Shown here: piece by piece, positions 2,418 to 58,984 of the stretch | Position numbering within the stretch: the stretch's first letter is position 1 | Layout of the letters: each line of letters begins with the position of its first letter | Source of the DNA: Candidatus Poribacteria bacterium | GTDB taxonomy: Bacteria; Poribacteria; WGA-4E; WGA-3G | NCBI GenBank assembly: GCA_022824265.1 | Contig: JAJEAG010000051.1 | Location: 12,818 to 76,817 of the forward strand | Reading direction: 5' to 3' | DNA length: 64,000 nucleotides | Made by a program: the position numbers and the translations under genes | Notes under the pieces: generated by a model | What the model was told of the DNA's origin: nothing | Database searches by the model: none | Seen by the model: the letters and a program-made list of their open reading frames with translations, nothing else

Positions 2418-3506
2418 ATGGCTGTTAAAGTAGGTATTATTGGTACAGGTGGCATTTCCCGTGCACATAGGGGTACCTATGAGAAAGTAGGCGGATTTGA
2501 GATCATTGCAGTGTGCGACATCATAAAAAGTAAGGCAAACCAAGCCGCTGAAGAGTGGGGAGTTCCAAAAAAGAACGCTTTCTCAAGTTACAACAAGATG
2601 CTTGAAATGGATGAACTTGATGCTGTGAGTGTCACTACTTACAATCAAGGACATCGTCGACCAACCGTTGCTGCATTGAAAGCGGGTAAACACGTACTCT
2701 GTGAGAAACCGATGGCTGCGACACTTCCTGATGCGACCGCAATGGTACGGGCAGCTAAGGAAACAGGCAAAATCCTACAAATTGGTCTTAATCCGACGTT
2801 TGATCCGAGACTCCAATTTGCGAGGAAGGTATATGACGAAGGATTACTCGGTGATATCTATTACTCTGAATCGGCAGGGTGCAGACGCCGCGGGAATCCC
2901 GGACATACCTTCATTTACAAAAAGACTGCGGGTGCGGGTGCCACCGTTGATATCGGTGTCTACAATATGCATAGGTCGCTATTTGCAATGGGGTATCCGA
3001 AACCTGTGCGGGTCTCTGCTATCACTGAAGACTACATATCAATGCAGGATCCGAGGTTCCAAGGAAAAATGGATGTTGAAGAGTTCGGTGTGGCATGGAT
3101 CCGATTTGAAAATGGTGGTGTCATGGTGTTTAAAATCTCTTGGGCAGTGCACGCCAACTCACTCGGTGGGAACTTTCATCTTGGTACAAAAGCAGGGATT
3201 TCTTTGGATGGACCAGTTATTTACGCTGATGCATACGAAGGTGATCTCAAGAAACTCGTCGAATCGGAGGGATTAACAGCAGAACCGGACCCACCGGAAG
3301 GCATGACGACTATTCAGTTCTCAGGATTCCCGGCGTCTGATAACTGGGCGGCACAGATGATCGCATTTCGTGAAGCGATCAAAGCAGACGCGCCATCACC
3401 AATTTCACCAGAGGGTGTTCTCCTCACAAATGTAATTATGGATGGTATTTTCCGTTCGCATGCAGCGGGTAAAGAGGTTGCAGTCAAGGTTCCAGAATTC
3501 GATTAG
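2418..3506 (+). CDS. Gfo/Idh/MocA family oxidoreductase, tandem paralog of 1208..2293
   Basis: VGIIGTGGISRAH and CEKPMA motifs; collinear with the upstream gene over its full length with high amino-acid identity. Confidence 0.85.
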   Translation: MAVKVGIIGTGGISRAHRGTYEKVGGFEIIAVCDIIKSKANQAAEEWGVPKKNAFSSYNKMLEMDELDAVSVTTYNQGHRRPTVAALKAGKHVLCEKPMAATLPDATAMVRAAKETGKILQIGLNPTFDPRLQFARKVYDEGLLGDIYYSESAGCRRRGNPGHTFIYKKTAGAGATVDIGVYNMHRSLFAMGYPKPVRVSAITEDYISMQDPRFQGKMDVEEFGVAWIRFENGGVMVFKISWAVHANSLGGNFHLGTKAGISLDGPVIYADAYEGDLKKLVESEGLTAEPDPPEGMTTIQFSGFPASDNWAAQMIAFREAIKADAPSPISPEGVLLTNVIMDGIFRSHAAGKEVAVKVPEFD

Positions 3507-12504: not shown

Positions 12505-12575
12505 GAAGTGATGCGTTTGTAGTGGTGCAATTTATTACCAAGTCAACACCAAATGCGAGTATAGCGTTGATTCAC
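12505..12575. repeat. Divergent partial copy of the dispersed intergenic repeat core (see 21531..21790)
   Basis: GCGTTTGTAGTGGTGCAATTTATTACCAAGTCAACACCAAATGCG is roughly 75% identical to the core AACGCGTTTGTAGTCGCGCAATTCATTGCCAAATCAACGCCAAATGCGC. Confidence 0.45.
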
Positions 12576-12749
12576 TGGTCACGACCCGTGGAGTACCTAG
12601 CGCGTATTCGATGTTGATTAGGCTATAGTAAAGAATAAACCAAGCGAGTCGAAATATTTATTTTATAGTAAATTTCGTAATTACTTGGACACTTTGGTAG
12701 GTTCGGTTTCCTATCCTGAAACAGTGCGTCAGACACTAAAAAAAATGTC

Positions 12750-13124
12750 TTGAAACCGCATCTTCGTGAACAATGGGTGATCCCCCCTTCCGAAGATGCT
12801 GCATTTGTGAATGCGATGGAGCAAGTGCCTGATCTTTATCAGAAACCTTTAGATACGGATGTTCCTGTTGTGAACATGGATGAACAATCTGTAACGCTAA
12901 GGGATCACCTGCGTGCTCCACGACCTGCTAAACCGGGTCAAGTAGAACGCGTGGATTCTGAATACAGACGCAATGGCACAGCATCAGTTTTTCTTTTCAC
13001 AGAGACCCTTTTTGAATTTCGGTATGTGTCTGTTCGGGAGCGTCGGACTGCGGTGGATTGGACAGAGGAGGTAAAGGTGCTATTGGAGGATGTGTATCCG
13101 AAGGCAAAGCGTGTGATTTTATAG
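12750..13124 (+). pseudogene. IS630-family transposase fragment (DDE_3 / ISAzo13-like type), central part
   Basis: LKPHLREQWVIPP and DSEYRRNGTASVF motifs; ends ...AKRVIL. The upstream region contains frameshifted continuation. Confidence 0.7.
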
Positions 13125-13168
13125 TGACATTTAGAATTATTGATACATTTTTTATTTTTTGTTAGAAT

Positions 13169-13429
13169 ATGTTTCCCATGGCATATTCACCCGATGGACG
13201 AAAACGCATTTTAGATTATGTTGCAGCTGGCGGGAAAAAATCTGAAGCATCCCGTCTGTTTTCCGTCGCACGCTCAACTATTGATAGGTGGTTAGCAGCT
13301 GAGAACCCGTTTGCAATTAGAAAAACAGGACCCAAAAAAATGAGAGTGATTGATGAGGAGGCAATCAGAAAACATGTTGCTGATTTCCCCGACTTAACAC
13401 AAAAAGAACGTGCTGCACATTATCATTAG
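13169..13429 (+). pseudogene. IS630/Tc1-type transposase N-terminal HTH fragment (classical ISY100-like type)
   Basis: AYSPDGRKRILDYVAAGGKKSEASRLFSVARSTIDRWL resembles ISY100-type N-termini. Truncated after about 86 aa. Confidence 0.6.
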
Positions 13430-13975
13430 CTAATCCGTGGACAGGTAAGGAAATGTCCGCTGTCCAAATAGAATTGCTGTAAATCGCGGAGATCTACTAT
13501 GTGCTGGTTATGGATAATTCTCGTCATCATAGTGAACATAGTCATAAACTGGACTCTGATAATTACAACGCCGGAGGGCTGGCTTATAGGAGTGATTGCT
13601 ATAATTGTCATAATTCTCATCATATCTTATAGAATAAATAGAAACTATTGACTATCTATTTCCGTGTCCTCCCCTTATCCTGGGGCACCACGCATTCGTT
13701 TCAGCGATATGCAGCACACGTTCTAAAAATAATACGTCGCCTTATACAACTTGCCCGATCAGCTGAGTCAATCTCCCGCAGTGCATCAACGAAAATCCTG
13801 TTTACCGCATTAACCTGATTGAAATCCGTGATATTGCCATACCTCGTAAAATGAAATTGGTACTATAGTTGACATTGAAATTAAAGAGACACATTTCTAT
13901 AGGAGTGATCTCCGAATCGCGACAAAACTCACTGATAGTCAGGGATCGGAGTTTCCTCCTACAACTCAAAATGTC

Positions 13976-14314
13976 TTGTTAATTCTAAAGTTCACTATAG
14001 TATGTGATAACCTAAATACACACACCCTTTCATCCTTGTATAAAGCATTTCCTGAGGCAGAAGCACAAAGATTGTGTGCTCGTTTGGAAATCGTGTATAC
14101 GCCTAAACACGGCAGTTGGTTGAATATTGCGGAGATAGAACTGAGTGTGCTAACACGACAGTGTTTGTGTCGGCGTATTCCCGATATAGAAACATTACAA
14201 AGAGAGACGCAGGCGTGGCAAAAACGACGAAATGCAGAGCAAAAGCAAGTAGATTGGCAATGGACCATGGCAGATGCGCGCATCAGATTAAAACATTTAT
14301 ACCCAAAAGATTAG
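13976..14314 (+). pseudogene. IS630-family transposase C-terminal DDE fragment, continuation of 12750..13124
   Basis: VCDNLNTHT and TPKHGSWLNIAEIELSVL motifs. Reading ...KRVIL then VCDNLNTH gives a contiguous transposase, interrupted here by an 850-bp insert. Confidence 0.7.
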
Positions 14315-14393
14315 GATGGACAAAGCACTATTGTGGTATCCCAACCGCTCCTCGTTATGTTAATTAGTCGGGTTTCGTTCAAAGAATACCGAA

Positions 14394-20609: not shown

Positions 20610-21512
20610 ATGGCACGAAACAAGTTGAAAGACAGTATTGTATATCAAATCGTTATCTTCATTGCTTGGACTTGCCGCCTTATCCCCCAAAAAATGGCAA
20701 TGTTGCTTGCCACTATCATTGGCAAGTTACTATTTCTGATACTCAAAAAACGTCGACAGATCGCACTCAAAAACTTACAAATAGCATTTGGAAACAGTAT
20801 TGATGAAAGACAACGACGAAAAATATGTAAAGCAAGTTTTATCAACTTAAGTAAAACAACAGTTGAATTCATGCGTTTCACCAAATTGAATCCTGAGAAT
20901 ATATGGAATGACGTTACCGTAGACGGAGTAGAACATCTAAATATCGCACTGGAAAAAGGAAAAGGGGCAATTGTATTTCTGCCACACTTTGGGAATTGGG
21001 AACTTCTTTCACTTGTCTATGGAACGCTCATCCCAAACCGCGCGAAAGCGATTGCATTTCCACTCAAAAACACAAAACTCAATGACTATGTTTGGCGAAT
21101 TAGGGAACTTATGAGTTTAGAAATTATACCACGAAAAAATGCCATTCGTGCGACATTACGCGCACTTAAAAATAACGATGCGGTCGGTTTTTTTGCTGAT
21201 CAAAACGCAGGGGATCAAGGAGTGTTCATCGAATTTTTTGGTAAACCTGCTTCTACGGCAAGAGGTCCAGTTTCAATCGCACTGAAAACGAATGCACCGA
21301 TACTATTTTCATTGGATATTCGGCAACCCAATGACCATCATCAAGTCCATATTTTACCACCGATTTATTTGGAACCATCTGACAATTTTGAGTATGATGT
21401 CAAAAAATACACTACCATACTTTTGAAAGAATTGGAGAATTACATAGAACAATATCCAGATCAGTGGCTATGGCTACACAACCGATGGAAAACACAACCT
21501 AACCAGAATTGA
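20610..21512 (+). CDS. Lipid A biosynthesis acyltransferase, LpxL/HtrB (Kdo2-lipid IVA acyltransferase) family
   Basis: PHFGNWE catalytic motif (HX4E), N-terminal membrane anchor, about 300 aa. Confidence 0.75.
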   Translation: MARNKLKDSIVYQIVIFIAWTCRLIPQKMAMLLATIIGKLLFLILKKRRQIALKNLQIAFGNSIDERQRRKICKASFINLSKTTVEFMRFTKLNPENIWNDVTVDGVEHLNIALEKGKGAIVFLPHFGNWELLSLVYGTLIPNRAKAIAFPLKNTKLNDYVWRIRELMSLEIIPRKNAIRATLRALKNNDAVGFFADQNAGDQGVFIEFFGKPASTARGPVSIALKTNAPILFSLDIRQPNDHHQVHILPPIYLEPSDNFEYDVKKYTTILLKELENYIEQYPDQWLWLHNRWKTQPNQN

Positions 21513-21530
21513 CTGAGATAGGACTTAGAC

Positions 21531-21790
21531 ACAAGCAGTAGGCGCGCTTTGTAAGCGCGCTGGACTTCAATAGTAATACCATTTCTAAATAATAACTTCT
21601 CATTAACAAAAAACGCGTTTGTAGTCGCGCAATTCATTGCCAAATCAACGCCAAATGCGCCAAATCAACGGTATGAATGCCATTGGCATGCCCCGTATGG
21701 CATTTGTCGCCTCGGACATTCCGTAGGGGCGAGGTCTCCCCGCCCGTATTCTCACATACAGTCCCGTAGGTCGGGTAGAGCGAAGCGCAA
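21531..21790 (+). repeat. Composite dispersed intergenic repeat, copy R1: GC hairpin, ~85-bp core, and GTAGGGGCGAGG palindrome module
   Basis: GGCGCGCTTTGTAAGCGCGC + TGGACTTCAATAGTAA + ATTTCTAAATAATAACTT...GCCAAATGCGC + GTAGGGGCGAGGTCTCCCCGCCCGTATTCTCACATACAGTCCCGTAGGTCGGG. Nearly identical to 26384..26610 apart from two indels. Confidence 0.7.
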
Positions 21791-22096
21791 CCCATGTCTA
21801 TCTGAACCATAGAACGTCATGCACAAAAATCAGCGCAATCTATCAGAATCGCAGCATAATGCAATTAGGTTTCAGACGTTACAAAGAGACATTGATATAC
21901 CAAAATCTTTCAGTGTATTCACCGTCTTCAGTGCTTTCCGTGATTCAGACAATTAGCACTATCAAATACCTTTCACACGAAGGCATAATCCTTAAGTTGA
22001 GACCTATGGGTTTCGTCCCTCAACCCGACCTACAGGACATTATGACAATTTGTCAATTAGAAATGGTATAACTTGGGTACTTCTCACAAATCCCTT

Positions 22097-22119
22097 GTAG
22101 GGACGGGGTCTCTCCGCCC
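22097..22119. repeat. REP-like palindrome GTAGGGACGGGGTCTCTCCGCCC, preceded by the TTCTCACAAATCCC module
   Basis: Same family as 21723..21746. An inverted half-copy (CCCGACCTACAGGAC) sits at about 22024. Confidence 0.5.
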
Positions 22120-22350
22120 AAATAGAAGCACTTTTCTTTCTGGGACGAGTCAACTTATCTTCTATGATGAAGATGTGATTTTCTGCAAGACATCAGATAA
22201 ACGATTTATGAGATAGACCGTAATAACTGAATGGTTCCATAGCCAGTGTAACAAATTTGCATTGCACAATCCTTGATGTTATGGTATGATATAAAGACAC
22301 ATAACACAATACCAATTTATGAGTCAATTTTTCCGTAGTGGGGTGCTCTC

Positions 22351-23886
22351 ATGAAAAGATTTACTTTGTCCTTCATCGTTTTAGTAGTCGCAATAGGGCT
22401 TCCATTGCTTATTATCCATTCAAGCGAAAAGGTGGCAACGAGTGACGATGAACGGATTACACTCAGAATGTTGAATCAAGCACTCGCGACCGCAATAATG
22501 ACCACCGAAGAAAATTACTATAAACCGGTAGATAGAAATGCAATGTACCGTGGCGCAATCAAAGGTGCACTTGCTGCTATGGGTGACCCATACACCTATC
22601 TCCTATCAGAGCGAGACCATCAACGTTCTGTCGAAAATCTATATAACGCAAATTTCGGTGGGATTGGCGTTGGAATATACCCCGACCATCGCGGCTTCAT
22701 AAAAATATCTAAACCTATTCCGGGAACACCCGCAGACTCCGCACATTTACAAGCGGGAGATTACATCACCAAAGTCAATGGAAAGCAAATATACTTAGGG
22801 GACAGAACAGGTATGACGGTTGATGATGTTGTCGACCTACTTAGAGGGGCAGTCGATACTGATGTCACCATAACCGTACAACGAAAATTCCTTGAACCTT
22901 TTGATGTAAAACTAAAACGCGCTAAAATCTCAGTTCCGAGCGTTACAACTACAATGTTGGACGACAAAATCGGTTATATCCGAATCACAAAATTCATCGG
23001 TACGAACCGAGTTGGTGGAACAGAAGAGGAATTTAACAAAGCACTCGCAGCGCATCAGAAGGCAGGCATGCAGGCACTAATATTGGATTTGAGAAGTAAT
23101 CAAGGTGGTTTACTTGATGCTGCATACCATATCGCAGACGCTTTTATTGATAAAGGTATTATTGTGTCAACAAAAGGAAGGAAAAGCGAATTTGATGAAG
23201 AATATCCTGCACACACAGATATCTTATGTGACCCCGAAATACCGGTTGTTGTTCTCGTTGATGAATATAGCGCAAGTGCATCTGAAATCGTAGCTGGAGC
23301 AATAAAAGACACAGGTCGAGGCATTCTTGTTGGCACAAAAACCTACGGAAAAGGCGTTGTCCAAAAACGATATCCTCTGACAAGTCTCGGTGCAATTTCT
23401 CTTACCATCTCATCGTATTATACTCCTAACGGAACGTCAATTGACAAATCAGGTATTACCCCACATGTACCAGTCACCGAACAACAACCTGAGAGAATTG
23501 AACAGATGATGCATCGGCTTGTTGTAGAAAAGAAATCGGTTGAGAATTATGTGGCAAATTGGATTGAAGATGAAGTCAAACGGACAGGAGAAATTCCCAA
23601 AGATTTCGCACCACTTGAGGCAACACTGACAGAATTTAGAAATAAACTCGCAGATGATGGGTACCGCGTTAGTCTACGGTGGTTGATAATTCGTGCTGAA
23701 CAACTTTTTAATATCAATGCTGGTATTGAACGAATTGTAAATTTACGTCATGACACGCAGCTACAAGAAGCAATCCGAATTATAAAGGAAGATGAGGTAG
23801 GAAGCACAATTAAGTTGTACCAAACACTTGATAAGATACTGATATATATGGGACAAGAATTGCAGACTCTGGTGCGTGGTGTTTGA
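22351..23886 (+). CDS. ctpA: S41-family C-terminal processing peptidase (Prc/CtpA) with PDZ domain
   Basis: PDZ segment GGIGVGIY...PGTPADSAHLQAGDYITKVNG, LDLRSNQGGLL and TYGKGVVQ catalytic-region motifs, and an N-terminal signal anchor. Confidence 0.88.
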   Translation: MKRFTLSFIVLVVAIGLPLLIIHSSEKVATSDDERITLRMLNQALATAIMTTEENYYKPVDRNAMYRGAIKGALAAMGDPYTYLLSERDHQRSVENLYNANFGGIGVGIYPDHRGFIKISKPIPGTPADSAHLQAGDYITKVNGKQIYLGDRTGMTVDDVVDLLRGAVDTDVTITVQRKFLEPFDVKLKRAKISVPSVTTTMLDDKIGYIRITKFIGTNRVGGTEEEFNKALAAHQKAGMQALILDLRSNQGGLLDAAYHIADAFIDKGIIVSTKGRKSEFDEEYPAHTDILCDPEIPVVVLVDEYSASASEIVAGAIKDTGRGILVGTKTYGKGVVQKRYPLTSLGAISLTISSYYTPNGTSIDKSGITPHVPVTEQQPERIEQMMHRLVVEKKSVENYVANWIEDEVKRTGEIPKDFAPLEATLTEFRNKLADDGYRVSLRWLIIRAEQLFNINAGIERIVNLRHDTQLQEAIRIIKEDEVGSTIKLYQTLDKILIYMGQELQTLVRGV

Positions 23887-24086
23887 ACTTTTAGATTCCA
23901 TAGAACGAAGTAAAACCCAACATGGTAATAGGCACGCTCGCGTGTCGTAACCAATCCGGTTGGTGCAGTTACCTGAAGAATACCACACAGATTTGTATTT
24001 TACTTTACCCACTGAGACGTGCGTTTTTTCTATCCAACTCCTGCCGGTTAGGAGCTGCTGAGTATTTACTCTCCGACAAAAAATAA

Positions 24087-26018
24087 ATGAATCCACAACC
24101 CTCGCAAACTACCGAGGTCATCACAAAAAAAGCGATAATTGTTGGTTTAATCCTCGTTATCGTCAACGCATACTGGGTCGGAATAGCAAGTGAACTCTGG
24201 TATGCAGTCTACACACTTGTTTCCCCTTTTTCAAATGCAGTCTTCACGCTGGTAGTCCTACTCGCACTGAATGTTATCCTCCGCAAAATAACACCTCGTT
24301 TCGCTTTTACACCTGCCGAATTGCTACTCATCTACATCATGGTAACGATGGTCTCCACCATATCGGGGCATGCGATGATGGCAATCCTGATGGGTACTCT
24401 TGCCCACCCGTTCTGGTTCGCCACACCAGAAAATGAGTGGGCACAATTCTTTTTACACCACATCCCCGAATGGTTAACGGTACATGAATCCGAATGGTTA
24501 GCTGGTTATTATGAAGGTGAATCAAGTCTATATCTACCTGAGCATATACGTATATGGGTAAAACCTGTACTTATCTGGTCAACGTTTATTCTATTTCTAT
24601 ACGGATCGTTGCTGTGCTTAGGACTGCTGATACGAAAACAGTGGATGGAACGCGAAAAATTAAGCTTTCCATTAACACAGTTACCTTTGCAAATGACAAC
24701 CAACCGCAGTTTCTTCACTACGCGATCGCTTTGGATAGGGTTTGGTATAGCAGCATTGATACGTGTAATTGCAGGTTTGCACGACCTATTTCCAGTAATA
24801 CCCGCTTTGCCTTCAAGTTACCGACTTGATAGACATCTCACAGACAGACCTTGGAACGCTGTCGGTTATGTCTCAATGAACTTCAATCTCGCAATCGTTG
24901 GATTGACCTATTTCATGCCACTTGATCTTGCCTTCTCAACGTGGTTTTTCTTCTGGCTTACACGTGCTGAACGAGTGATTGCAAGTGCAGTCGGTATAAC
25001 AAATATCAGCAAACTACACCTCAATGATCGCGCATCGGGGGCTTGGATAGGAATTGCTGTGCTGACTTTATGGATGGGACGTAGACACATCATAAGGTTT
25101 TTTAGGCATGTTGTCGGACTTGAACGAGGTGATGATAGCAATGAACCTATATCCTACCGAACAACAGCGATTCTTACTATTCTCAGCATGGGTGCAGTAT
25201 TCGTCTTCTGTTACATCGCAGGGATGTCGTTATGGGTGATTGGAGTCTTTTACGGGTTGTTTATTGCATTTGCCTTAGCAATCGGACGAGTTCGCGCTGA
25301 ACTTGGACCACCCTACCATGAGGTAATTGGTATTAATCCACGTCAAATCATGGTCAATACATTCGGTTCGCGTAGCTTAGGAGCAGCAAACCTAACCGTA
25401 ATGACGTTTCTTTACGCATTTAACCGATGCAACCGTTCACATCCAATGCCAAACCAAATTGAATCGCTCAGAATCGGTGATCAAGCAAAGATTCCTGGTA
25501 AGACCCTACTACTATGTATGGCACTTGCAATCGGTGTTGGTGCATTTGCAACGTTCTGGACATATCTGCATGTAGGGTATCATTACGGTGTACTGGCGAG
25601 GTGTCAAGGTCACGTTGGACACTTCGGCTGGGAAAGTTTCAATCCGCTTCAGAGTTGGTTGCAGCATCCAAAAGAAGCGAATGTCAGCGCAATCGTATTT
25701 ATGGGTGCAGGTTTCGTTTTTGTGTTCCTACTTAATTTCTTAAGGACACGTCTGCTATGGTGGACACTACATCCATCTGGATACGTCCTTTCTGGTGCGT
25801 CATGGGGTGGTCTTATCTATTTTTGGTTTCCTGTGATGGTCAGTTGGTTCATAAAGTTTATGATTCTACGATTTTCTGGATGGCAAACCTACCGCAGAGC
25901 AATACCGTTTTTCCTCGGATTAGTTTTAGGTGATTTTGTACCGCGTAGTATACTCAGTATAATTAGTTTTGTGATGAATCTATATATGCCTTCTTCTGGT
26001 GCTGGACATACCCTATAA
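24087..26018 (+). CDS. Large polytopic integral membrane protein (at least 12 predicted TM helices), uncharacterised family
   Basis: 643 aa with many helix-length hydrophobic segments rich in W/F/Y. No catalytic motif recognised. Confidence 0.55.
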   Translation: MNPQPSQTTEVITKKAIIVGLILVIVNAYWVGIASELWYAVYTLVSPFSNAVFTLVVLLALNVILRKITPRFAFTPAELLLIYIMVTMVSTISGHAMMAILMGTLAHPFWFATPENEWAQFFLHHIPEWLTVHESEWLAGYYEGESSLYLPEHIRIWVKPVLIWSTFILFLYGSLLCLGLLIRKQWMEREKLSFPLTQLPLQMTTNRSFFTTRSLWIGFGIAALIRVIAGLHDLFPVIPALPSSYRLDRHLTDRPWNAVGYVSMNFNLAIVGLTYFMPLDLAFSTWFFFWLTRAERVIASAVGITNISKLHLNDRASGAWIGIAVLTLWMGRRHIIRFFRHVVGLERGDDSNEPISYRTTAILTILSMGAVFVFCYIAGMSLWVIGVFYGLFIAFALAIGRVRAELGPPYHEVIGINPRQIMVNTFGSRSLGAANLTVMTFLYAFNRCNRSHPMPNQIESLRIGDQAKIPGKTLLLCMALAIGVGAFATFWTYLHVGYHYGVLARCQGHVGHFGWESFNPLQSWLQHPKEANVSAIVFMGAGFVFVFLLNFLRTRLLWWTLHPSGYVLSGASWGGLIYFWFPVMVSWFIKFMILRFSGWQTYRRAIPFFLGLVLGDFVPRSILSIISFVMNLYMPSSGAGHTL

Positions 26019-26383
26019 CACTTGAAATATGATATAATAGAAGTTATACCAATTCTAATAATTATTATCCCATTACTGGATTCAACCATTGTTGATTGGC
26101 AATCTTTCTTCTGTAGGAGCAACCTACTATCCTGAAAATCTCGGTTTAGTCAATACTGAAAACTGAAAACTAAACCAAAAAACTGAAACAGACATCAAAC
26201 ATATTGGATATATATTGTTATCAAAATCAATAACACTACACGACCAAACGACCATCAAGTATAATATAACCCAACATCCAACACAGAACTTGCAAAATCG
26301 AGAAAACCAATGACAACATATCAAAACACAAAACCGAAAAAAAACAACTAAATGGAGATTATGGTAAAATTCATAATTATATC

Positions 26384-26610
26384 ATTTCTAAATAATAACT
26401 TTTCATCAACAAAAAACGCGTTCGTAGTCGCGCAATTCATTGCCAAATCAACGCCAAATGCGCTTATGGCATTTGTCGCCTCGGACATTTGGATTTATTA
26501 AGTCTCAAAATGTGGTTTTATTTATTAGAATTGGTATTACATTCTCGTAGGGGCGAGATTTCCTCGCCCGCATTCTCACATACAGTCCTGTAGGTCAGAA
26601 CGAGTGAAGT
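26384..26610 (+). repeat. Composite dispersed intergenic repeat, copy R2 (direct copy of R1)
   Basis: ATTTCTAAATAATAACTTTTCATCAACAAAAAACGCGTTCGTAGTCGCGCAATTCATTGCCAAATCAACGCCAAATGCGC ... GTAGGGGCGAGATTTCCTCGCCCGCATTCTCACATACAGTCCTGTAGGTC. Confidence 0.7.
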
Positions 26611-26904
26611 GACCTCAGACAACAAGCGATTCAGACAAGCAAGAATCATTAAATTGATGCCTATGGTGTGTTTTCAAATTGACACTTATATCTTAAATAA
26701 AACAGAACTAAAATGGAGCAAAATAAAAAACGAAAATCGCGTCACATTCCTTGTCCTGATTGGATTCATCACGTCATTGTGACGTAACAAAAGGTCACAA
26801 TTTCATTAGGCAAAGTTATAATTCATGCGGTAAGACATTCATACACGCCGAATACCTTAATGAAGATTGATTTATTCTTTCGGTAATATGAATGTCCCCA
26901 AAAC

Positions 26905-27065
26905 CTGTAAGCGTGCTGGACTTCAATAGTAAATTATCAAATTTATTTCTTAAGTTTCATAATGGTATTCATACCGTTGATTTGGGAAATGCCGTAAGCG
27001 CATTTGGCATTGATTCAAGGTAGATCCTATAACTATTCCACGAAAATGGCACTTTATTTGTTAGA
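26905..27065 (-). repeat. Inverted mosaic copy (R3) of the composite repeat
   Basis: Begins with the forward head GTAAGCGTGCTGGACTTCAATAGTAA, then continues as the reverse complement of the core (CCGTTGATTTGG = revcomp of CCAAATCAACGG; GCATTTGGCATTGATT = revcomp of AATCAATGCCAAATGC). Confidence 0.6.
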
Positions 27066-27079
27066 AATGGTATTATATT

Positions 27080-28123
27080 ATGACACCACTACTTTCTGTC
27101 AATTCCATAACAAAACAGTTCGCATCAACTCCCATTGTAACGGATGTCAGTTTTGATGTATATCCAGGAGAAATTTTCGCACTATTGGGAGCAAGCGGGT
27201 GTGGCAAAACAACTACTTTACGCTTGATTGCAGGCTTTGAAAAAGCAGACTCAGGCACTATTTTAATGGGAGATCGTGTTCTTGAAGACCAAAATATACA
27301 TATTCCATCCGAATTACGAGGAATTGGGTTTGTTTTTCAAGATTACGCACTTTTTCCTGACAAGAACGTGATACATAACGTTGCATTCGGACTTAGTCGC
27401 AAGTTGTCAAAAAATGTGCGGTACACGACTGCCATGGATTCCCTTGAGCGAGTCGGCATTGCACACTTGCATGAGCGAATGCCACATCATCTCTCTGGTG
27501 GAGAACAGCAACGAGTCGCATTAGCTCGTTCTCTGGCAACGCAACCGAAGCTGCTGCTATTAGATGAACCTTTTTCAAGCCTTGATGCGGGTCTTCGTCA
27601 AGAAACAAGAGAAGAGGTACGTGAATTATTAAAAGCAGCAGAAATCACTGTGGTACTTGTAACACATGACCAAGAAGAAGCATTGAGTTTTGCTGAACGT
27701 GTGGTAGTCATGAACAGCGGTACTATTGAACAGATCGGCACTCCGGAAGAGGTATACCAACACCCAAAAACTGTATATGTCGCCAGATTTCTTGGGACAA
27801 CGAATATCATTGAAACAGACATCAAAAACGGAGCTGCAGAAACACCATTTGGAACGTTGCCAGTAGATTCTCCAAACACAACACAAGCACTCCTTTCAAT
27901 TCGTCCAGAACATATTCGCATAGAAAAACATATCCCTGATACTGGTGATAATAAATTTGGTCGTATTACTGCCCGTGAATTCAAAGGACACGATTTAACA
28001 TACCGCGTTGAAGTTGAAGGAAAACCTTACTTTATCCAAACCGACTACCAACAGCACTTCAAAGTCGGTGATGCGGTAACTTTGAAACCAATTGAAGCGG
28101 TTGTTATTGAGGATAAATCGTGA
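27080..28123 (+). CDS. ABC transporter ATP-binding protein with C-terminal TOBE-type domain (PotA/FbpC/CysA/MalK-like importer ATPase)
   Basis: Walker [10 protein letters not shown], signature [13 protein letters not shown], Walker B LLLLDEP, and a ~110-aa C-terminal extension. Confidence 0.85.
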
Positions 28124-28258
28124 TGTAAATCTAAAACATTTGTTTTACGTTCTATTTTGATTCCATTTCTAATCTATAATGTGTTAAAATAATTGTGTGA
28201 AATTACGTGTCTTTATGAAATCTATTTTGAATATTCGAACAAATAGTAAGGAAATCTG

Positions 28259-31174: not shown

Positions 31175-31208
31175 CTCTTATCCTATAAAACTTGGTTCAG
31201 ACTACATC

Positions 31209-31232
31209 GTAGGGGCGAGGTCTCCTCGCCCG
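31209..31232. repeat. REP-like palindrome GTAGGGGCGAGGTCTCCTCGCCCG
   Basis: Perfect inverted repeat GGGCGAGG-TCT-CCTCGCCC. Family member; followed by a TATTTACCCCACACC...CTGTAGGAGCGAC module. Confidence 0.6.
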
Positions 31233-31325
31233 TATTTACCCCACACCCTCTTCTGTAGGAGCGACTTTCAAGTCGCGACTTTACGACATATTTCTACGAT
31301 TTAACGAAAACTGAATGGCTCTGAA

Positions 31326-36160: not shown

Positions 36161-39100
36161 ATGAGAATACTGTGTAATTACATAATAATCAGTTGTTTGT
36201 TGATATTTATTTCTGTCGGTATTGTTGACGCACAACAGAATCTGGCACAACAAGCTTATGCAATCATGGAGCAATCCTGCCTTATATGCCACGGGGAGAA
36301 CGGCTCATATACAGAGGCACTTATCATTGAATACACAGCACTCATTGATGACGGAAAAGTCGTTCCTAGTGATCCAGACGGTTCTGTGTTCTATCAAAGA
36401 CTCATCGAAACGAATATTGCTAAACGTATGCCGCTCGGACAGCCTGCGCTTGATCCCGCTGCGATTGAAACGATACGTCAATGGATTGCAGCAGGCGCAC
36501 CCGATTGGGATGCCGTGTCAAGACCAGAGACTAACTTCATTACAACTGATACTATGTTTGAAACGATTGAGAACCACGTCAATTCTCTTGCTCCACGTGA
36601 TAAATTGTTTGCACGTTATTTTTCGTTGACACATCTCTATAACGCAGGTGAGACAACTGAAGCACTTCAAGCATATCGGCGTGCCCTTTCGAAACTGATC
36701 AATAGTCTCTCTTGGGGTCGTGAAGTTGTTAAACCAATTCCTATTGATACCGAAGAAACCATTTACTACATTGATCTCCGAGACTATGAATGGGATGTGA
36801 GAAACGACGCATGGACACAGGTTGAGCAGGCATATCCCTACAAAATGATGTACGATGCACCAACACAGATACATCTCCGCGAAAAACTAACGACTCTACA
36901 GCAGGAGATGAACTGTGAAGTTCCGTTTGTTCATGTGGATTGGTTCATCGCAAATGCTTCCTTACCACCCCTCTATCACGATATTTTGCAGCTGCCACTG
37001 ACAGACCGAGAACTGGAAGAAAAACTTGGGATATCAGTTAAAGAAAACATACAGAACGCACCAAGAAAACGTGTCTGGCGTGCAGGTTTCAGTGATTCTG
37101 GAGTCTCAAATCACAACAGAGTTGTAGAACGTCATAATTTTCAACACGGTGCATACTGGAAAAGTTATGACTTCGCGGGAAGTGCCGATTCACAGAATAT
37201 ATTTACCCATCCGCTTAATTTTACACATGACGGTGGCGAAATTATCTTCAACCTACCGAACGGATTACAAGCGTATCTTTTGGTAGATAGTAACGGTAAC
37301 CGGCTTGATGTAGCACCCACAGATATCGTTTCTAATCCTGCTGCAAGTGATCCTGCCGTCCGCAACGGTCTTTCGTGTATCGGTTGCCACACAGAAGGGA
37401 TGAAGACGTTTGAAGACGAGGTGCGTGCTGTAGTTGAACAGGCAAATAATCCGCTTTTTAACAAGGCACGAGCATTAGAACTCTATGTGGAACAAGAGAT
37501 AATGGATGAGTTTGTTGAAGAGGATACGCTACGTTATAGGAACGCTCTTGAGAAAGCGGGTGGTATATTTGGGGGTATTGAGCCGATTCAACGTTTCCAT
37601 GAGGTGTTTCAAGGTGCGCTTGATGCTGCACATGCTGCAGCTGCTGTTGGGTTAGAGACCGATACATTCCTTGAGAGAATAAGCAAAAGTCCAACTTTAC
37701 AAAACTTATTAGGGGCATTGGTGTTAGATAACGGTGCCATCAAACGAGACGCATGGACATCGGCTTTCCACGATGTGATTTCTGCGCTGAATTCTCCTGA
37801 TACCGTACTGCCACCCATAGAACAACCAGAACGTATACCAGGTGCTTCAGTGAATATACCCGATCTGAACCTTCGCGCTGTAATTGAAGAAGCACTCGGT
37901 AAAGCGATGGGTGAGGTTATTACTGTTGAGGATATGGAAAGTTTGACGAGATTTGTTGGGAATGACAAAGGCATTCAAGATTTGACAGGTGTTGAATTTG
38001 CAAAAAATTTAACCTACTTTGAAATTCGACGTAATATGGTCAACGATCTCACTCCAATTGCAAGTTTAACAAATCTGAGTGGATTACGTGTGCAAGGAAA
38101 CAATATATCAGATATATCTCCAATAATTGACCTTAAAAGAATAGGAACACTTGAAATATATGATAATCAAATTTCTGACATTTCCCCAATTGGGGAACTA
38201 ACGAACTTATTTTGGTTGTCTATGACTAATAATCCAATCAATGATATCTCACCACTTGCTAATTTGAAAAAGCTGAACGGAATTCGATTGAATTTCGAAG
38301 ATTCTACTGATTTTTCTCCTATAGCAGAATTAACAAACTTAGAAAGGTTTTTCTTATGGGGTGCTGGTAAACCTATACCTGATTTGACACCCTTAGCTAA
38401 CTTACAAAAATTAAAAATCTTAGACCTACGCGGCGAAGGAGTACCTGATTTGTCTCCTATTGCACAATTAGACAACTTGGGAAGATTTGAATTTTGGGGA
38501 TCGGGTGAAAACCTACCTGATCTGTTACCTTTAGCAGAATCAAATAATTTGAAGGAATTATGGGTCATAAATTGCGGAATCACAGATCTAACTTTTATAG
38601 AGAACTTCACAAGTTTGGAAAGGTTAAATCTTGAACGGAATAATATAACAGATGTGTCACCGTTAGCAAAATTGACAAACTTAAAATGGCTAAAACTTAC
38701 AAACAATCCAATATCTGACTTTTCACCTTTAGCAGAATTCGCACAAACTACTAACGTCCTCACAGGAGATGTTGCAATTAATGATCCCAACCTACGTGCG
38801 GCAATTGCAGTAGCACTTGGTAAAGGCTACAGTAGGATTGTTTCAATTACATTGGAAGAGTTGGCAACTTTGACTCACCTTGATGCTAAAAATGATAATG
38901 AGTCACAGAATGAAAATATCAGCAATTTAACGGGTTTGGAGTTTGCAATAAATCTAAGTTATTTGAATATTGCTGGCAATTCAGTATCAGATTTAACACC
39001 AATCGAAGGTTTAACAGAACTTAGTTTCTTAGATGCTCAAGATAACTTAATATCGGATACAATACCACTTAAAGGATTAACTAATCTACGAGGTTTAATT

Positions 39101-42100
39101 CTTAATCGTAACTTGATTAATGATTTATCACCTCTCATGGGATTAACACAACTTCAAGATTTACGCGTTGCTAATAACCTGATTTCTGATTTTTCTCCAC
39201 TTGCTAAACTCACTACATTGAAAAAGTTAACGATTTCAGGCAGCTCGTTTTCTGACTTATCCATACTAACGGGATTAATTAACCTTGAAGGGTTATGGAT
39301 ATCCCACAGTTCGCTAACCGACCTGTCACCGCTTGTGGAATTAATGAACCTGGAGGGTATGTCCGTTTGGGATTCACCTGTAGCAGATCTATCCCCATTG
39401 GTAGGACTACCAAAACTGAAATGGTTGGATTTTGGTCGCACTCCGATATCAGGTCTTTCACCATTAGCGAATATAGTAACCTTGCGAAAACTGACATTTT
39501 ACGACTGTGGAATAGAAGATCTTTCAGTTCTTAAAGGTTTAACAGAGTTGGTACATATTAAAATGCCACACAACGCGATTTCGGATGTTTCACCGTTAGC
39601 GGGGTTAATACATCTAACGTATTTGGAGTTAGGTGACAATGCAATATCGGATATATCTGCATTGGAACAATTAACCAATTTAGAAACTCTATGGATCAAT
39701 AATAACAACATATCAGACGTATCACCTTTGTCAGAATTGACTAACTTACAAGAACTAAAACTTCGTAATAACCCGATAACAGATTTTTCACCTTTAGTTA
39801 ATCTCTTTGACAATACATATATACTGTATGATCTTATTATTCCAGATGTGAACCTACGTGCAGCGATTGCAGAAGCACTCGGAAAAGAAGATGCTACTGC
39901 CTCAATTACATTTGTAGAAATGGCATCTTTGACAACCTTATCAGCGAGCAATAAGGATATTAAAGATTTAACAGGTATTGAACACGCGATAAATCTGGAA
40001 GAGATATGGGTCGGAAAAAACCCGTTGTTTGATCTTTCACCACTCGCAGGATTGACAAACCTTGTCGGTATAAGTGCTTGGGAAACCCCTATATCCGATT
40101 TGTCGTCCTTGAAAGATTTAACGAAATTGAGATGGTTAGATTTTGGTCGTACCGATGTACATGACTTGTCTTCTTTGAAAGATTTAACGAACTTGAAAAA
40201 ACTGAAGTTCTATGGTTGTGGTGTCATAGAAGATCTTTCACCACTGGAAGGCTTAACAGCGTTGACAGAAATGAACTTTGGAGGCAATCCTATATCCGAC
40301 TTATCTCCGCTGGCAGTGTTAGTCAACTTGGAACATTTAGATTTTCACGGGGATAACATTGCTGACCTCTCACCCTTGGCTGGGTTGAACAAACTGAGAC
40401 ATCTTGATCTTCGTGCTAATTCATTATCTGATGTATCAGCTTTGGCTGGATTAACCAGTTTAACAAACCTTTTACTTGGCGATAACAAAATCTCTGACGT
40501 ATCACCCTTAGCAGGATTATTCAACTTAGAGTATCTATTCCTTAGAGAGAATTTAATAACCGACATCTCTCCATTGAATAATTTGCACAAAGATATATAT
40601 ATTGATTGGCTAAGAAACCCTGGTGCCCCCAAAGAGGGACCGAAATTAGAAGGTCCTTGGTTATGTGTATTGATTCCAGGAAAACGACTCGATAGCGACA
40701 CTGATTTATTAGCAGATACGAGTGATGGGTCCGTAACAGAACATCAGATTGCGACAAAAGGCGCACTGGAAGGAAAAGCTGTAGGAGATAAAAAGTGGAC
40801 ATCACATAGAATATCTCCCACTGGTAGAAATAATTTTAAAGATGTCTTGAGAACTTTCGATGTCCCTCCAGATCAGGATACAAGCGATAATGTTGTTTAT
40901 GCTTGCATAATAATAGGTTCACAGCAAGAACAGAACACAAAATTGCTATTGGGCAGTGAAGGACATCACAAGATTTGGTTAAATGGTGATTTGATACATC
41001 AGGATGTTGGTCTCGATGCCCATGATTCGCGTGATTATGGTATGTTCCTCCCTGTTACCTTGAAACAAGGCGCGAATATTTTATTAGTTGCAATTGATAG
41101 TGGACATTGGATTACAGGACATTTCGGTTTTGAAGAAGGGACTGAGTACACGGTGGTTCCACCTGGTGTTGGTTTCTCATTCACTGCAACAGAGATCTCC
41201 CTCCTTGCAGGTGATACGTTCACACTTAACCTTAACGCTGAAAACATCACTGATTTGGCAGGATGGCAAACAGATATTGCGTTTGACCCGAATGTGCTTG
41301 AAGCAGTTGAAGTCACCGAAGGCGATTTTCTGAAGTCAGAAGGTGGAGATACCTTCTTCCAAGGCGGGACGATTGATAACGCTACAGGGAATATTTCAAC
41401 TATATTTTCGACACGGATATCTGAAAATGGTAGTAGCGGTACAGGTGCATTGCTGTCGGTAATATTCAAGGCAAAAGCAGCAGGTGAAACTCAGGTGACA
41501 TTAGAAAACTTTGAGTTTGTCTCTATCACCGATGACATTATTCCTACTGTCCATCCTAATATTACTATCACTGTGGGAGAATATCCTGCATGGGATGTGA
41601 ATCAGGATGGACGCGTGAGTATTCTGGATCTTATTCTCGTAGCAAGGGATTTCGGATCAGGTGCAACTGCTAACTTACGCACAGATGTAAATCGAGATGG
41701 CGTAATCAATATCCAAGACCTTATCATTGTCGCACAACACATGGGTGAAACGACAGATTCCGCAGCACCTAATGTATATGTAATGGATAGCAAAGAACTA
41801 ACCCCAGCAATAGTACAAGAATGGATTCAACTGGCACAAATAGAAGATGACGGATCGCTCGCTTTCCAACAAGGCATAGAGAACCTTCAACGTCTATTAG
41901 CATCACTGCTTCCTGAAAAGACTGCACTTCTCGCAAACTATCCGAATCCCTTCAATCCTGAGACATGGATACCGTACCAACTCGCGAAACCTGCAGAGGT
42001 TACTTTGACGATTTATACTATAAACGGATCGGTTATTCGGATATTGGCGTTAGGACATCAGGGTGCTGGAATCTATCAGAGTCGTAGTCGTGCTGCGTAT

Positions 42101-42208
42101 TGGGATGGCAGGAATGAGGTTGGAGAATTCGTAGCAAGTGGAGTGTATTTCTATACACTCACTGCAGGTGATTTTATAGCAACCCGACGGATGTTAATTC
42201 TGAAGTAA
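36161..42208 (+). CDS. Giant secreted multidomain protein (2015 aa). Domains: signal peptide; planctomycete-type cytochrome c (PSCyt1-like) heme module with 2 CxxCH; three duplicated blocks of internalin-like leucine-rich repeats; a beta-sandwich region; cohesin-like domain; dockerin; T9SS-type C-terminal sorting domain.
   Basis: Heme module: SCLICHGENG ... VVPSDPDGSVFYQRLIE ... MPLGQPALDPAAIETIRQWIAAGAP, and a second CIGCH. LRRs: about 45 repeats of 22 aa (LTNLxxLxLxxNxISDISPLAxL), each block opening with NLRAAIxxALGK. Cohesin-like: GDTFTLNLNAENITDLAGWQTDIAFDPNVLEAVEV...ALLSVIFKAKAAGETQVTL. Dockerin: DVNQDGRVSILDLILVAR ... DVNRDGVINIQDLIIVAQH. C-terminal: ANYPNPFNPETWIPYQL...VTLTIYTINGSVIR...WDGRNEVGEFVASGVYFYTL...RRMLILK. 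Confidence 0.85.
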   Translation: MRILCNYIIISCLLIFISVGIVDAQQNLAQQAYAIMEQSCLICHGENGSYTEALIIEYTALIDDGKVVPSDPDGSVFYQRLIETNIAKRMPLGQPALDPAAIETIRQWIAAGAPDWDAVSRPETNFITTDTMFETIENHVNSLAPRDKLFARYFSLTHLYNAGETTEALQAYRRALSKLINSLSWGREVVKPIPIDTEETIYYIDLRDYEWDVRNDAWTQVEQAYPYKMMYDAPTQIHLREKLTTLQQEMNCEVPFVHVDWFIANASLPPLYHDILQLPLTDRELEEKLGISVKENIQNAPRKRVWRAGFSDSGVSNHNRVVERHNFQHGAYWKSYDFAGSADSQNIFTHPLNFTHDGGEIIFNLPNGLQAYLLVDSNGNRLDVAPTDIVSNPAASDPAVRNGLSCIGCHTEGMKTFEDEVRAVVEQANNPLFNKARALELYVEQEIMDEFVEEDTLRYRNALEKAGGIFGGIEPIQRFHEVFQGALDAAHAAAAVGLETDTFLERISKSPTLQNLLGALVLDNGAIKRDAWTSAFHDVISALNSPDTVLPPIEQPERIPGASVNIPDLNLRAVIEEALGKAMGEVITVEDMESLTRFVGNDKGIQDLTGVEFAKNLTYFEIRRNMVNDLTPIASLTNLSGLRVQGNNISDISPIIDLKRIGTLEIYDNQISDISPIGELTNLFWLSMTNNPINDISPLANLKKLNGIRLNFEDSTDFSPIAELTNLERFFLWGAGKPIPDLTPLANLQKLKILDLRGEGVPDLSPIAQLDNLGRFEFWGSGENLPDLLPLAESNNLKELWVINCGITDLTFIENFTSLERLNLERNNITDVSPLAKLTNLKWLKLTNNPISDFSPLAEFAQTTNVLTGDVAINDPNLRAAIAVALGKGYSRIVSITLEELATLTHLDAKNDNESQNENISNLTGLEFAINLSYLNIAGNSVSDLTPIEGLTELSFLDAQDNLISDTIPLKGLTNLRGLILNRNLINDLSPLMGLTQLQDLRVANNLISDFSPLAKLTTLKKLTISGSSFSDLSILTGLINLEGLWISHSSLTDLSPLVELMNLEGMSVWDSPVADLSPLVGLPKLKWLDFGRTPISGLSPLANIVTLRKLTFYDCGIEDLSVLKGLTELVHIKMPHNAISDVSPLAGLIHLTYLELGDNAISDISALEQLTNLETLWINNNNISDVSPLSELTNLQELKLRNNPITDFSPLVNLFDNTYILYDLIIPDVNLRAAIAEALGKEDATASITFVEMASLTTLSASNKDIKDLTGIEHAINLEEIWVGKNPLFDLSPLAGLTNLVGISAWETPISDLSSLKDLTKLRWLDFGRTDVHDLSSLKDLTNLKKLKFYGCGVIEDLSPLEGLTALTEMNFGGNPISDLSPLAVLVNLEHLDFHGDNIADLSPLAGLNKLRHLDLRANSLSDVSALAGLTSLTNLLLGDNKISDVSPLAGLFNLEYLFLRENLITDISPLNNLHKDIYIDWLRNPGAPKEGPKLEGPWLCVLIPGKRLDSDTDLLADTSDGSVTEHQIATKGALEGKAVGDKKWTSHRISPTGRNNFKDVLRTFDVPPDQDTSDNVVYACIIIGSQQEQNTKLLLGSEGHHKIWLNGDLIHQDVGLDAHDSRDYGMFLPVTLKQGANILLVAIDSGHWITGHFGFEEGTEYTVVPPGVGFSFTATEISLLAGDTFTLNLNAENITDLAGWQTDIAFDPNVLEAVEVTEGDFLKSEGGDTFFQGGTIDNATGNISTIFSTRISENGSSGTGALLSVIFKAKAAGETQVTLENFEFVSITDDIIPTVHPNITITVGEYPAWDVNQDGRVSILDLILVARDFGSGATANLRTDVNRDGVINIQDLIIVAQHMGETTDSAAPNVYVMDSKELTPAIVQEWIQLAQIEDDGSLAFQQGIENLQRLLASLLPEKTALLANYPNPFNPETWIPYQLAKPAEVTLTIYTINGSVIRILALGHQGAGIYQSRSRAAYWDGRNEVGEFVASGVYFYTLTAGDFIATRRMLILK

Positions 42209-49126: not shown

Positions 49127-49162
49127 GTAGGTTGGATTAAACATTAACAAAACCCAACCTAC
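49127..49162. repeat. Stem-loop GTAGGTTGG(18-nt loop)CCAACCTAC between two minus-strand genes
   Basis: 9-bp perfect stem; same arm sequence as the hairpins at 9341 and 35966. Confidence 0.5.
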
Positions 49163-58895: not shown

Positions 58896-58918
58896 AGGCG
58901 CGCTTTGTAAGCGCGCCT
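58896..58918. repeat. GC hairpin repeat AGGCGCGCTTTGTAAGCGCGCCT between rpsB and tsf
   Basis: 10-bp perfect stem with a TGT loop. Same core as 21531 and 45745. Confidence 0.6.
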
Positions 58919-58984
58919 ACCGTTTTGTGCGTAAGTCCTGATACTAATTTGAAAATAGTCCACTCCGTTAAACTACTGTATGAC

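Follow-up and report, generated by a model that had tools for sequence, protein, structure and literature searches.

A composite repeat flanking the ctpA and DUF6785 genes of Candidatus Poribacteria is best explained by nested insertions of a miniature transposable element carrying REP-type hairpins

A 64,000-nucleotide stretch of Candidatus Poribacteria DNA (contig JAJEAG010000051.1, positions 12,818 to 76,817; hereafter the window), part of a 125-kb metagenome scaffold (European Nucleotide Archive ERZ23491076, scaffold_247), harbours a composite repeat in two long spacers: one of 838 bp between the genes for an LpxL-type acyltransferase and an S41 peptidase (ctpA-like), and one of 1061 bp between the genes for a DUF6785/DUF6784 membrane protein and an ABC ATPase. 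A preliminary description of this DNA took the repeat for a ~220-bp dispersed unit with two direct copies (R1 and R2) bracketing the ctpA-DUF6785 gene pair and a third, inverted copy (R3). We conclude, with a probability of roughly 0.85, that the composite arose by independent and nested insertions of a miniature inverted-repeat transposable element (MITE) of the sponge-symbiont phylum Poribacteria, termed here MITE-A, that carries hairpins of the repetitive extragenic palindrome (REP) type and would constitute selfish non-autonomous DNA. Terminal repeats, a target duplication, orthologous empty sites, and filled versus empty paralogues at each level of nesting carry this conclusion. MITE-A would have inserted independently into both spacers flanking ctpA-DUF6785, and a later insertion would have landed in one of its own copies, bringing R2 (MITE-A#3) into MITE-A#2. 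The layers are, from the outside inwards, the MITE-A shell, a GTAG-headed palindrome at its centre (REP-core), a 34-nt unit within REP-core (N') and a further unit of 34 nt (N), which in R1 occupies the loop of N'.

Results

MITE-A generates a 3-bp target duplication and can land in itself

Intact copies of MITE-A are 112-260 bp long, lack an open reading frame (ORF) and end in terminal inverted repeats, TACCATTTCTAA and TTAGAAATGGTA, with arms that are similar over about 30 nt. As a 12-mer with at most one mismatch, TACCATTTCTAA is found 7 times in the window versus 0.57 times expected, and six of the 7 matches fall into the two spacers flanking ctpA-DUF6785, the seventh lying at 28161. The preliminary description had proposed a search for target-site duplications flanking the copies and, indeed, identical triplets border 23 of the 31 inverted terminal-repeat pairs across all loci (TTA in 12, TAA in 10 and TGA in 1). 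The triplet type is independent of the orientation of the element, which excludes a 2-bp TA duplication of the IS630 type with an asymmetric end, and the empty site in the relative L065 (L-numbers such as L002, L064 or L133 denote the Poribacteria or relative loci that we compared with the window) fits a duplication of 3 bp.

We obtained orthologous loci from a metagenome scan with the DUF6785 protein. L064 and L113, with 96% protein identity, about 88% nucleotide identity in genes and the gene order of the window, lack window positions 26041-27074, a block of 1034 bp that encompasses the whole of MITE-A#2, and L065 lacks this block as well. The window sequence at the downstream junction is GAAG-TTA/TACCAATTC...GAAATGGTA/TTA-TATTATGACACC (short form GAAG-TTA/TACC...GGTA/TTA-TATTATG, slashes marking the element ends), whereas L065 reads GTAGTTATATGATGACACC (short form GTAGTTATATGATG) and L064 reads ATAGTCATATTATGGTACC. 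Taking out the element together with one TTA renders the window colinear with L065, revealing a clean downstream empty site. The spacer upstream of ctpA, in turn, measures 66 bp in L064 and L113 versus 732 bp in the window. Both ends of MITE-A#2 match those of an intact 260-bp MITE at L133 (8150-8409), at 91% and 93% identity, and no ORF of at least 60 aa lies wholly inside 26047-27072 except one of 65 aa on the opposite strand. MITE-A#1 carries R1 along with further nested repeats. Thus, insertion of MITE-A duplicates a 3-bp TTA/TAA target and can also take place within another MITE-A copy, and with its terminal repeats, fixed target duplication, small size without coding capacity and presence/absence in relatives the shell is a MITE, for which no partner was identified. 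The three MITE-A copies lie within 5.5 kb (21574-27075), with none in the other ~80-84 kb of scaffold examined, and this clustering suggests local hopping or a preference for insertion into existing copies.

The bracketed genes behave independently of the repeats. The ctpA-DUF6785 pair occurs in the same context in L064, L113, L067, L068 and L069, all of which lack the repeats, and the order lpxL-ctpA-DUF6785-ABC is kept in such relatives. The genes and the flanking repeats are therefore not present or absent together, as those of a composite transposon would be. The deletion or amplification of the enclosed 4.6-kb segment that had been envisaged is hence a generic possibility only, as relatives without both repeat clusters keep the gene order. 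L002, a short-read contig of the same population, spans window positions 22044-26075 and breaks at both ends inside MITE-A arms, as expected of a dispersed repeat. On the downstream side, the right TTA of MITE-A#2 ends 4 nt before the ATG of the ABC ATPase gene (27080), at a place where relatives have a spacer of ~30 nt, and the insert of ~1 kb probably uncouples this gene from the upstream transcription unit. In another relative with 91% protein identity (L066, 2330-2700), the spacer downstream of the DUF6785 gene harbours a different insertion, consisting of a hairpin of the REP-T class (see below) followed by an apparent reverse-strand gene, indicating that this spacer has been struck independently in different lineages.

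Nested insertions account for the differences between R1, R2 and R3

Self-BLAST aligns R1 and R2 in three blocks: 21576-21660 with 26379-26463 (95.3% over 85 nt, E = 1e-33), 21696-21720 with 26465-26489 (100% over 25 nt) and 21716-21772 with 26539-26596 (89.7% over 58 nt). The two copies are therefore nearly identical apart from two indels, as had been noted, and the core surpasses the ~90% identity that had been set as a test. The first indel (previously put at 35 nt) is a 34-nt block present additionally in R1 (21661-21694); the second is a block of ~55 nt in R2 (about 26490-26544) that is for the most part the right arm of MITE-A#3 (26490-26536) with its TTA copy and a few bases next to it. 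Only R1 has the GC hairpin (21538-21560), in agreement with the preliminary description, and TGGACTTCAATAGTAA, but the notion of a single ~220-bp unit does not hold, because R1 and R2 consist of several units that are nested differently. Nested insertions, with a separate 3-bp target duplication for each MITE copy, account for these differences in place of the active recombination initially suspected; R1 is 95.2% identical to R2, and its identity to copies in other metagenome-assembled genomes (MAGs) reaches 98.7% and 95.2%.

The third copy is real in that inverted pieces are found at 26961-26985 (96% to 21660-21684), 26987-27015 (93% to 26446-26474) and 27054-27075 (91% to 21574-21595), but it is not the recombined mosaic it was thought to be: these pieces belong to the degenerate interior of an older MITE in opposite orientation (26047-27072). 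A 27-nt stretch (21550-21576) recurs nearby in direct orientation at 26906-26932 with 96% identity. Elsewhere in the window, the diverged fragment reported beside IS630 scars near 12505 was recovered at 12513-12557 with 87% identity to the core, the palindrome GTAGGGGCGAGG.TCTCC.CGCCC recurs at 31209 and, in diverged form, at 22097, and single modules are found again at 22097, 31209, 45745 and 58898, the last being the GC hairpin on the minus strand.

The innermost layers comprise the 34-nt units. In N', a hairpin of 9-bp stem and 7-nt loop comes after a tail of 9 nt, CAAATCAAC, and the whole unit splits REP-core between ...ATTGC and GCC... in R1, R2 and 55 other copies. Uninterrupted REP-core (GTAGTCGCGCAATTCATTGCGCC) occurs 16 times in the loci, including the MITE-A copies of L042 and L053, versus 57 occurrences of the interrupted form. 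N-type units, which have in common the fixed tail CAAATCAAC, a loop of conserved sequence (GCGTWTG) and a 9-bp stem that covaries, reside in seven or more host contexts, where they are usually preceded by C (5') and followed by G (3'). One such context is an inverted doublet of the G+C-rich hairpin REP-GC, which is empty in L040 and L027 and bears a clean 34-36-nt N insertion in L052, the L053 row of this alignment being disregarded for its wrong coordinates. Among 35 distinct N-family sequences, seven of the 9 stem pairs changed on both sides, with 26 cells showing such double changes versus 5.8 in shuffles and G-U in only 2 of 315 cells. The stem sequence thus varies freely (GCCAAATGC, GCAGCATGC and GATGAATGC are examples) while pairing is kept, indicating that the structure is constrained rather than the duplex sequence. 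At L012 3743-3875, four N-like units of 33 nt each (AAATCAAC, a GCCAAA hairpin and ATCTGTCC) are lined up in tandem, which shows that head-to-tail amplification of N-type units is also possible. Tentatively, and with odds that we place somewhat below even, the 34-nt N units may themselves be mobile elements, among the smallest known, that insert site-specifically at C^G steps in the stems or loops of GTAG hairpins and nest up to three deep. Together with an exchangeable MITE-A centre they might form a phylum-specific 'Russian-doll' system driven by a HUH-type (histidine-hydrophobe-histidine) or other enzyme.

GTAG-headed hairpins occur in several classes and in different shells

At the centre of MITE-A lies a GTAG-headed palindrome, which is REP-core in R1 and R2 and a different GTAG hairpin in L059, L133, L039 and L040. 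Counting both forms, REP-core is spread over three different shells: besides MITE-A, a second MITE type carries it with or without N' between terminal repeats (TATAGTAAAATCTAAAATTAC) that resemble the ends of the IS630 scars at 12.6-14.0 kb, and a third context begins with GTCAATTTAAG. The scars belong to a broken IS630-type element at 12600-14330, which has a weak DDE_3 match and terminal repeats TATAGTGACATTTAGAATTA and TATAGTGAACTTTAGAATTAAC resembling the ends of this second MITE type in other MAGs. Within the window, a hairpin follows GTAG at 18 of 406 sites, versus 1.4-3.6% for control tetramers. Judged from their sequence, REP-GC, REP-G, REP-T and REP-core are GTAG-tagged REPs, that is, repetitive extragenic palindromes with an unpaired GTAG. 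REP-GC forms inverted doublets resembling REPINs (REP doublets forming hairpins), with a spacer of about 28 nt, in L009, L016, L020, L027, L040, L052, L053 and L056, while REP-GC of the window occurs only as singlets. These findings bear out the likeness to MITEs and to REPs or bacterial interspersed mosaic elements (BIMEs) that had been suggested, by way of the terminal repeats, the 3-bp target duplications and the GTAG-headed hairpins.

Two further arrangements were seen. A second composite repeat (GGTTCAGACTACATC, REP-G and CACCC...CTGTAGGAGCGAC...GTCGCGACTTTACGACATAT) occurs twice on the scaffold, at window positions 31195-31285 and, outside the window, at L144 3517-3600, and at 49127-49162 lies a REPIN-like palindrome (GTAGGTTGGATTAAACATTAACAAAACCCAACCTAC) that is perfect and has a GTAG head at either end.

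The core is dispersed in Poribacteria genomes

Scanning 185,579 species, each represented by a single genome, with a 31-nt core pattern that covers R1, R2 and the fragment at 12.5 kb, we retrieved 60 loci, all from Candidatus Poribacteria MAGs (13 genomes with 1-15 loci each), compared to about 4e-6 matches expected by chance for a 58-bit pattern in 1.2e12 positions. The repeat is therefore a dispersed family, as proposed, and not a local duplication. Neither the core nor uninterrupted REP-core matched the viral contigs of IMG/VR. An alignment of 63 copies delimits a conserved unit of ~72 nt that is placed in differing settings, most commonly (and in the window) between TACCATTTCTAA and TTAGAAATGGTA. 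Core copies are intergenic in 46 of 48 classifiable cases; between co-directional genes 21 lie in sense and 10 in antisense orientation, while 9 copies lie between divergent and 6 between convergent genes.

Evidence on mobilisation and on other explanations

MITE-A would be moved in trans by cut-and-paste through a DDE transposase of the IS5 or PIF-Harbinger type, whereas the GTAG hairpins and N units may spread as single-stranded hairpins via a HUH/Y1 enzyme resembling REP-associated tyrosine transposases (RAYTs), the N units perhaps via another enzyme; all of these elements would be selfish and without host function. Our sample for the mobilising enzymes comprised 1.1 Mb of Poribacteria loci and the scaffold flanks beyond the window. 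Pairs of inverted terminal repeats 600-3000 bp apart that enclose ORFs included none with both matching TTA/TAA flanks and a transposase-like ORF. A candidate ORF in L053 proved to encode PhyH, and the large multi-copy ORF clusters across loci were all housekeeping (sulfatase, TPR, SDR, lectin and others). A tblastn search with E. coli RayT (NC_000913.3) against the window and the 60 loci gave chance matches only, to PhyH-type and other genes; as RAYTs are single-copy, the 1.1-Mb sample is too small to exclude one. The scaffold flanks yielded no transposase and only one more REP-G composite.

Several points weigh against the insertion of a selfish MITE as we describe it. The upstream spacer lacks a clean empty-site junction, its flanks having diverged from L064. 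Because the loci were picked by an exact 31-mer, the conservation of this 31-nt stretch and the ratio of filled to empty sites are biased. The N-family sequences used for the covariation analysis had been pre-selected for no more than two stem mismatches, which inflates the percentage paired but not the double changes. There is a sense bias between co-directional genes, albeit a mild one. Finally, neither an autonomous element with MITE-A terminal repeats nor, apart from the IS630 scars, a DDE or Y1 transposase was found in the 1.1 Mb or the scaffold flanks, so that the enzymes named above are guesses.

Alternatively, the repeat could be a domesticated cis-regulatory or protein-binding cassette in which the GCCAAA(T) half-sites of REP-core and N' were selected for a host DNA-binding protein, comparable to the IHF sites in BIMEs and Correia elements. 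Such a role would be compatible with a mobile origin, and it could explain why the core, with its four GCCAAA/TTTGGC half-sites, is far better conserved than the MITE arms and occurs in three unrelated shells. Yet the 31-mer conservation is built into the search, the N-family stems change sequence freely as long as pairing is kept, and the copies have no fixed distance or orientation to genes, making this explanation unlikely.

Somewhat less probable again is that the core functions as RNA with incidental flanks, either as a structured small RNA family, the alternative raised in the preliminary description, or as cis-acting REP-type hairpins that stabilise or terminate mRNA. Compensatory changes maintain the hairpins, nearly all copies are intergenic with the mild sense bias noted above (21 versus 10), and Di Nocera et al. 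2013 (PMC3733652) argued that many GTAG REPs are transcribed. However, Rfam covariance models at the gathering score gave 0 matches in the whole window, and a permissive scan of 21400-27200 had its best E value at 1.5, to snoRNA models. The core has weak folding z-scores (-0.8 on the plus and -2.3 on the minus strand), copies take every one of the four orientations to the genes beside them, and compensation in the N-family hairpins, the sole stems tested, is almost purely Watson-Crick. Moreover, the unit resides inside elements with terminal repeats, target duplications and presence/absence polymorphism, and the numbers of promoter-like and terminator-like sites do not exceed those in shuffles, on which ground a promoter or terminator role of the repeats was rejected as well. 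An origin from tRNA or tmRNA was also discarded, no such genes having been found in the window. Least credible of all is a process confined to this locus, whether a segmental duplication or an exchange between the copies by recombination or gene conversion, that would yield a composite enclosing the 4.6-kb ctpA-DUF6785 segment and able to mobilise or remove it: two direct copies that are separated by 4.8 kb and share an 85-nt stretch at 95% identity, and the confinement of MITE-A to 5.5 kb of the scaffold, would fit it, but each copy has its own 3-bp target duplication, R1 is as close or closer to other loci (98.7% to L061, 95.2% to L023) as to R2 (95.2%), relatives without repeats share the lpxL-ctpA-DUF6785-ABC order, and the family is dispersed in 13 MAGs.

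Features of the repeat clusters and of the remaining window

The units assigned in the two spacers, along with copies outside the repeat region, are collected in Table 1.

Table 1. Coordinates of the MITE-A copies, their target duplications and the hairpin units in the window.
Feature	Position	Strand	Description
TAA target duplication of MITE-A#1	left 21574..21576, right 22069-22071		TAA/TAA pair read from sequence
MITE-A#1, 492 bp	21577..22068	+	ends TACCATTTCTAA 21577-21588 and TTAGAAATGGTA 22057-22068; depth profile against Poribacteria loci
TTA target duplication of MITE-A#2	left 26044..26046, right 27073-27075		empty sites in L064 and L065
MITE-A#2, 1026 bp, outer, older, degenerate	26047..27072	-	enlarged by later insertions; contains R3
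MITE-A#3, 157 bp, complete	26380..26536	+	TTA at 26377-26379 and 26537-26539; nested in MITE-A#2; carries R2
R3	26961..27017	-	degenerate N'-like unit (TGAATCAAT tail and GCCAAATGC hairpin) and truncated N unit; interior of MITE-A#2
REP-core, 5' part GTTTGTAGTCGCGCAATTCATTGC	21617..21640	+	GTAG at 21621-21624; 3' part GCCTCGGACATT at 21709-21720
N' unit in R1, 34 nt, CAAATCAAC tail and 9-7-9 hairpin	21641..21708	+	split by N into 21641-21660 and 21695-21708
N unit, 34 nt, CAAATCAACGGTATGAATGCCATTGGCATGCCCC	21661..21694	+	in loop of N'; loop uninterrupted in R2 and many loci
REP-core in R2	26420..26489	+	26420-26443 and 26478-26489, split by intact N' unit 26444-26477
REP-GC, GTAG-headed G+C hairpin GTAGGCGCGCTTTGTAAGCGCGC	21538..21560	+	singlet outside the MITE
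REP-GC copy	58898..58920	-	outside the repeat region studied; inverted repeat family I7
REP-G, GTAG-headed hairpin GTAGGGGCGAGGTCTCCCCGCCC	21723..21745	+	repeat family D7
REP-G, hairpin GTAGGGGCGAGATTTCCTCGCCC	26547..26569	+	followed by TTCTCACATACAGTCC tail and GTAGGTC
REP-G, diverged (GTAGGGACGGGGTCTCTCCGCCC)	22097..22119	+	outside MITE-A#1
REP-G copy	31209..31231	+	outside the repeat region studied
REP-T, GTAGGTCGGGTAGAGCGAAGCGCAACCC	21767..21793	+	degenerate 3' arm; class common in Poribacteria loci
REP-T, inverted (GTAGGTCGGGTTGAGGGACGAAACC)	22009..22033	-	inside MITE-A#1; inverted repeat family I3
Degenerate REP-core and N' fragment	12513..12557	+	adjoins IS630-type terminal repeats (TATAGTAAA...)

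The window also holds tandem paralogous GFO/IDH/MocA oxidoreductase genes (1208-2293 and 2418-3506) with 74% DNA identity over 1067 nt, and a 2015-aa ORF (36161-42208, plus strand) rich in 66-nt (22-aa) leucine-rich-repeat-like units that make up the repeat families D1, D3, D4, D6 and D13. Similar ORFs are found in 8 other Poribacteria loci, and the protein may belong to the eukaryote-like repeat proteins that sponge symbionts have been reported to carry.

Discussion

The elements described here explain long spacers in Poribacteria genomes, and the breaks of short-read contigs at this locus fit them too. They can possibly split operons, the 1-kb insert directly upstream of the ABC ATPase start codon being a case in point, and since insertions differ among close relatives they are usable as strain markers in sponge metagenomes. 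The layered nesting offers natural filled/empty pairs to study how very small hairpin repeats spread, a question that also concerns REPs and the small repeats of cyanobacteria. Our literature search retrieved no paper on Poribacteria repeats.

How do these elements compare with known systems? Harbinger-type elements have a TWA target preference. MITE-A resembles Tourist-like or PIF-Harbinger MITEs and the non-autonomous elements of the IS5 family (IS1031/IS427-type) in its size of 112-260 bp, the lack of an ORF and the terminal inverted repeats, as well as in the A/T-rich 3-bp TTA/TAA duplication, the nested self-insertion and the presence/absence between relatives. It differs from them in that a GTAG-headed hairpin is always found at its centre and in that no partner transposase was found. 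Duplications of 3 bp are also made by canonical Harbinger elements, which are relatives of IS5-family groups (PMC12730594).

The hairpins, in turn, are akin to GTAG-tagged REPs and REPINs (PMC3733652, PMC3116915), which are extragenic palindromes 20-40 nt long that have compensatory stem variants and in which GTAG stays unpaired at one end; the Poribacteria hairpins likewise come in several classes per genome and as singlets, inverted doublets and clusters. REPs spread via a Y1 transposase of the RAYT type that acts on single-stranded hairpins (PMC3116915, PMC3733652). Inner hairpins within complex loops are known from GTAG-3 and GTAG-14, and in Anabaena variabilis long palindromes enclose GTAG-15 dimers (PMC3733652), the latter paralleling REP-core inside MITE-A. 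The survey of GTAG REPs covers 8 phyla and its text does not name Poribacteria (0 occurrences; PMC3733652). REP-core differs in its 2-nt loop and in a 3' tail (CTCTTACATT/CTCGGACATT) that is conserved, and no RAYT gene was found in our sample.

In organisation only, the clusters are reminiscent of enterobacterial BIMEs, being intergenic, strain-variable mosaics of several REP classes and other short motifs, but the sequences are unrelated and the Poribacteria mosaic results largely from nesting in a MITE with target duplications, a shell that BIMEs lack. Nostoc and Anabaena reportedly harbour small dispersed repeats (SDRs) of 21-27 nt that lie within each other and within hairpin contexts, no enzyme being known for them. 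The N units are similar to these SDRs in being very small (34 nt) and nested, and differ in sequence, phylum and their fixed 9-nt tail with a 9-7-9 hairpin. Thus, the composite repeat consists of new Poribacteria elements of already known kinds, a MITE and GTAG-REPs, with no evidence of a new biological system.

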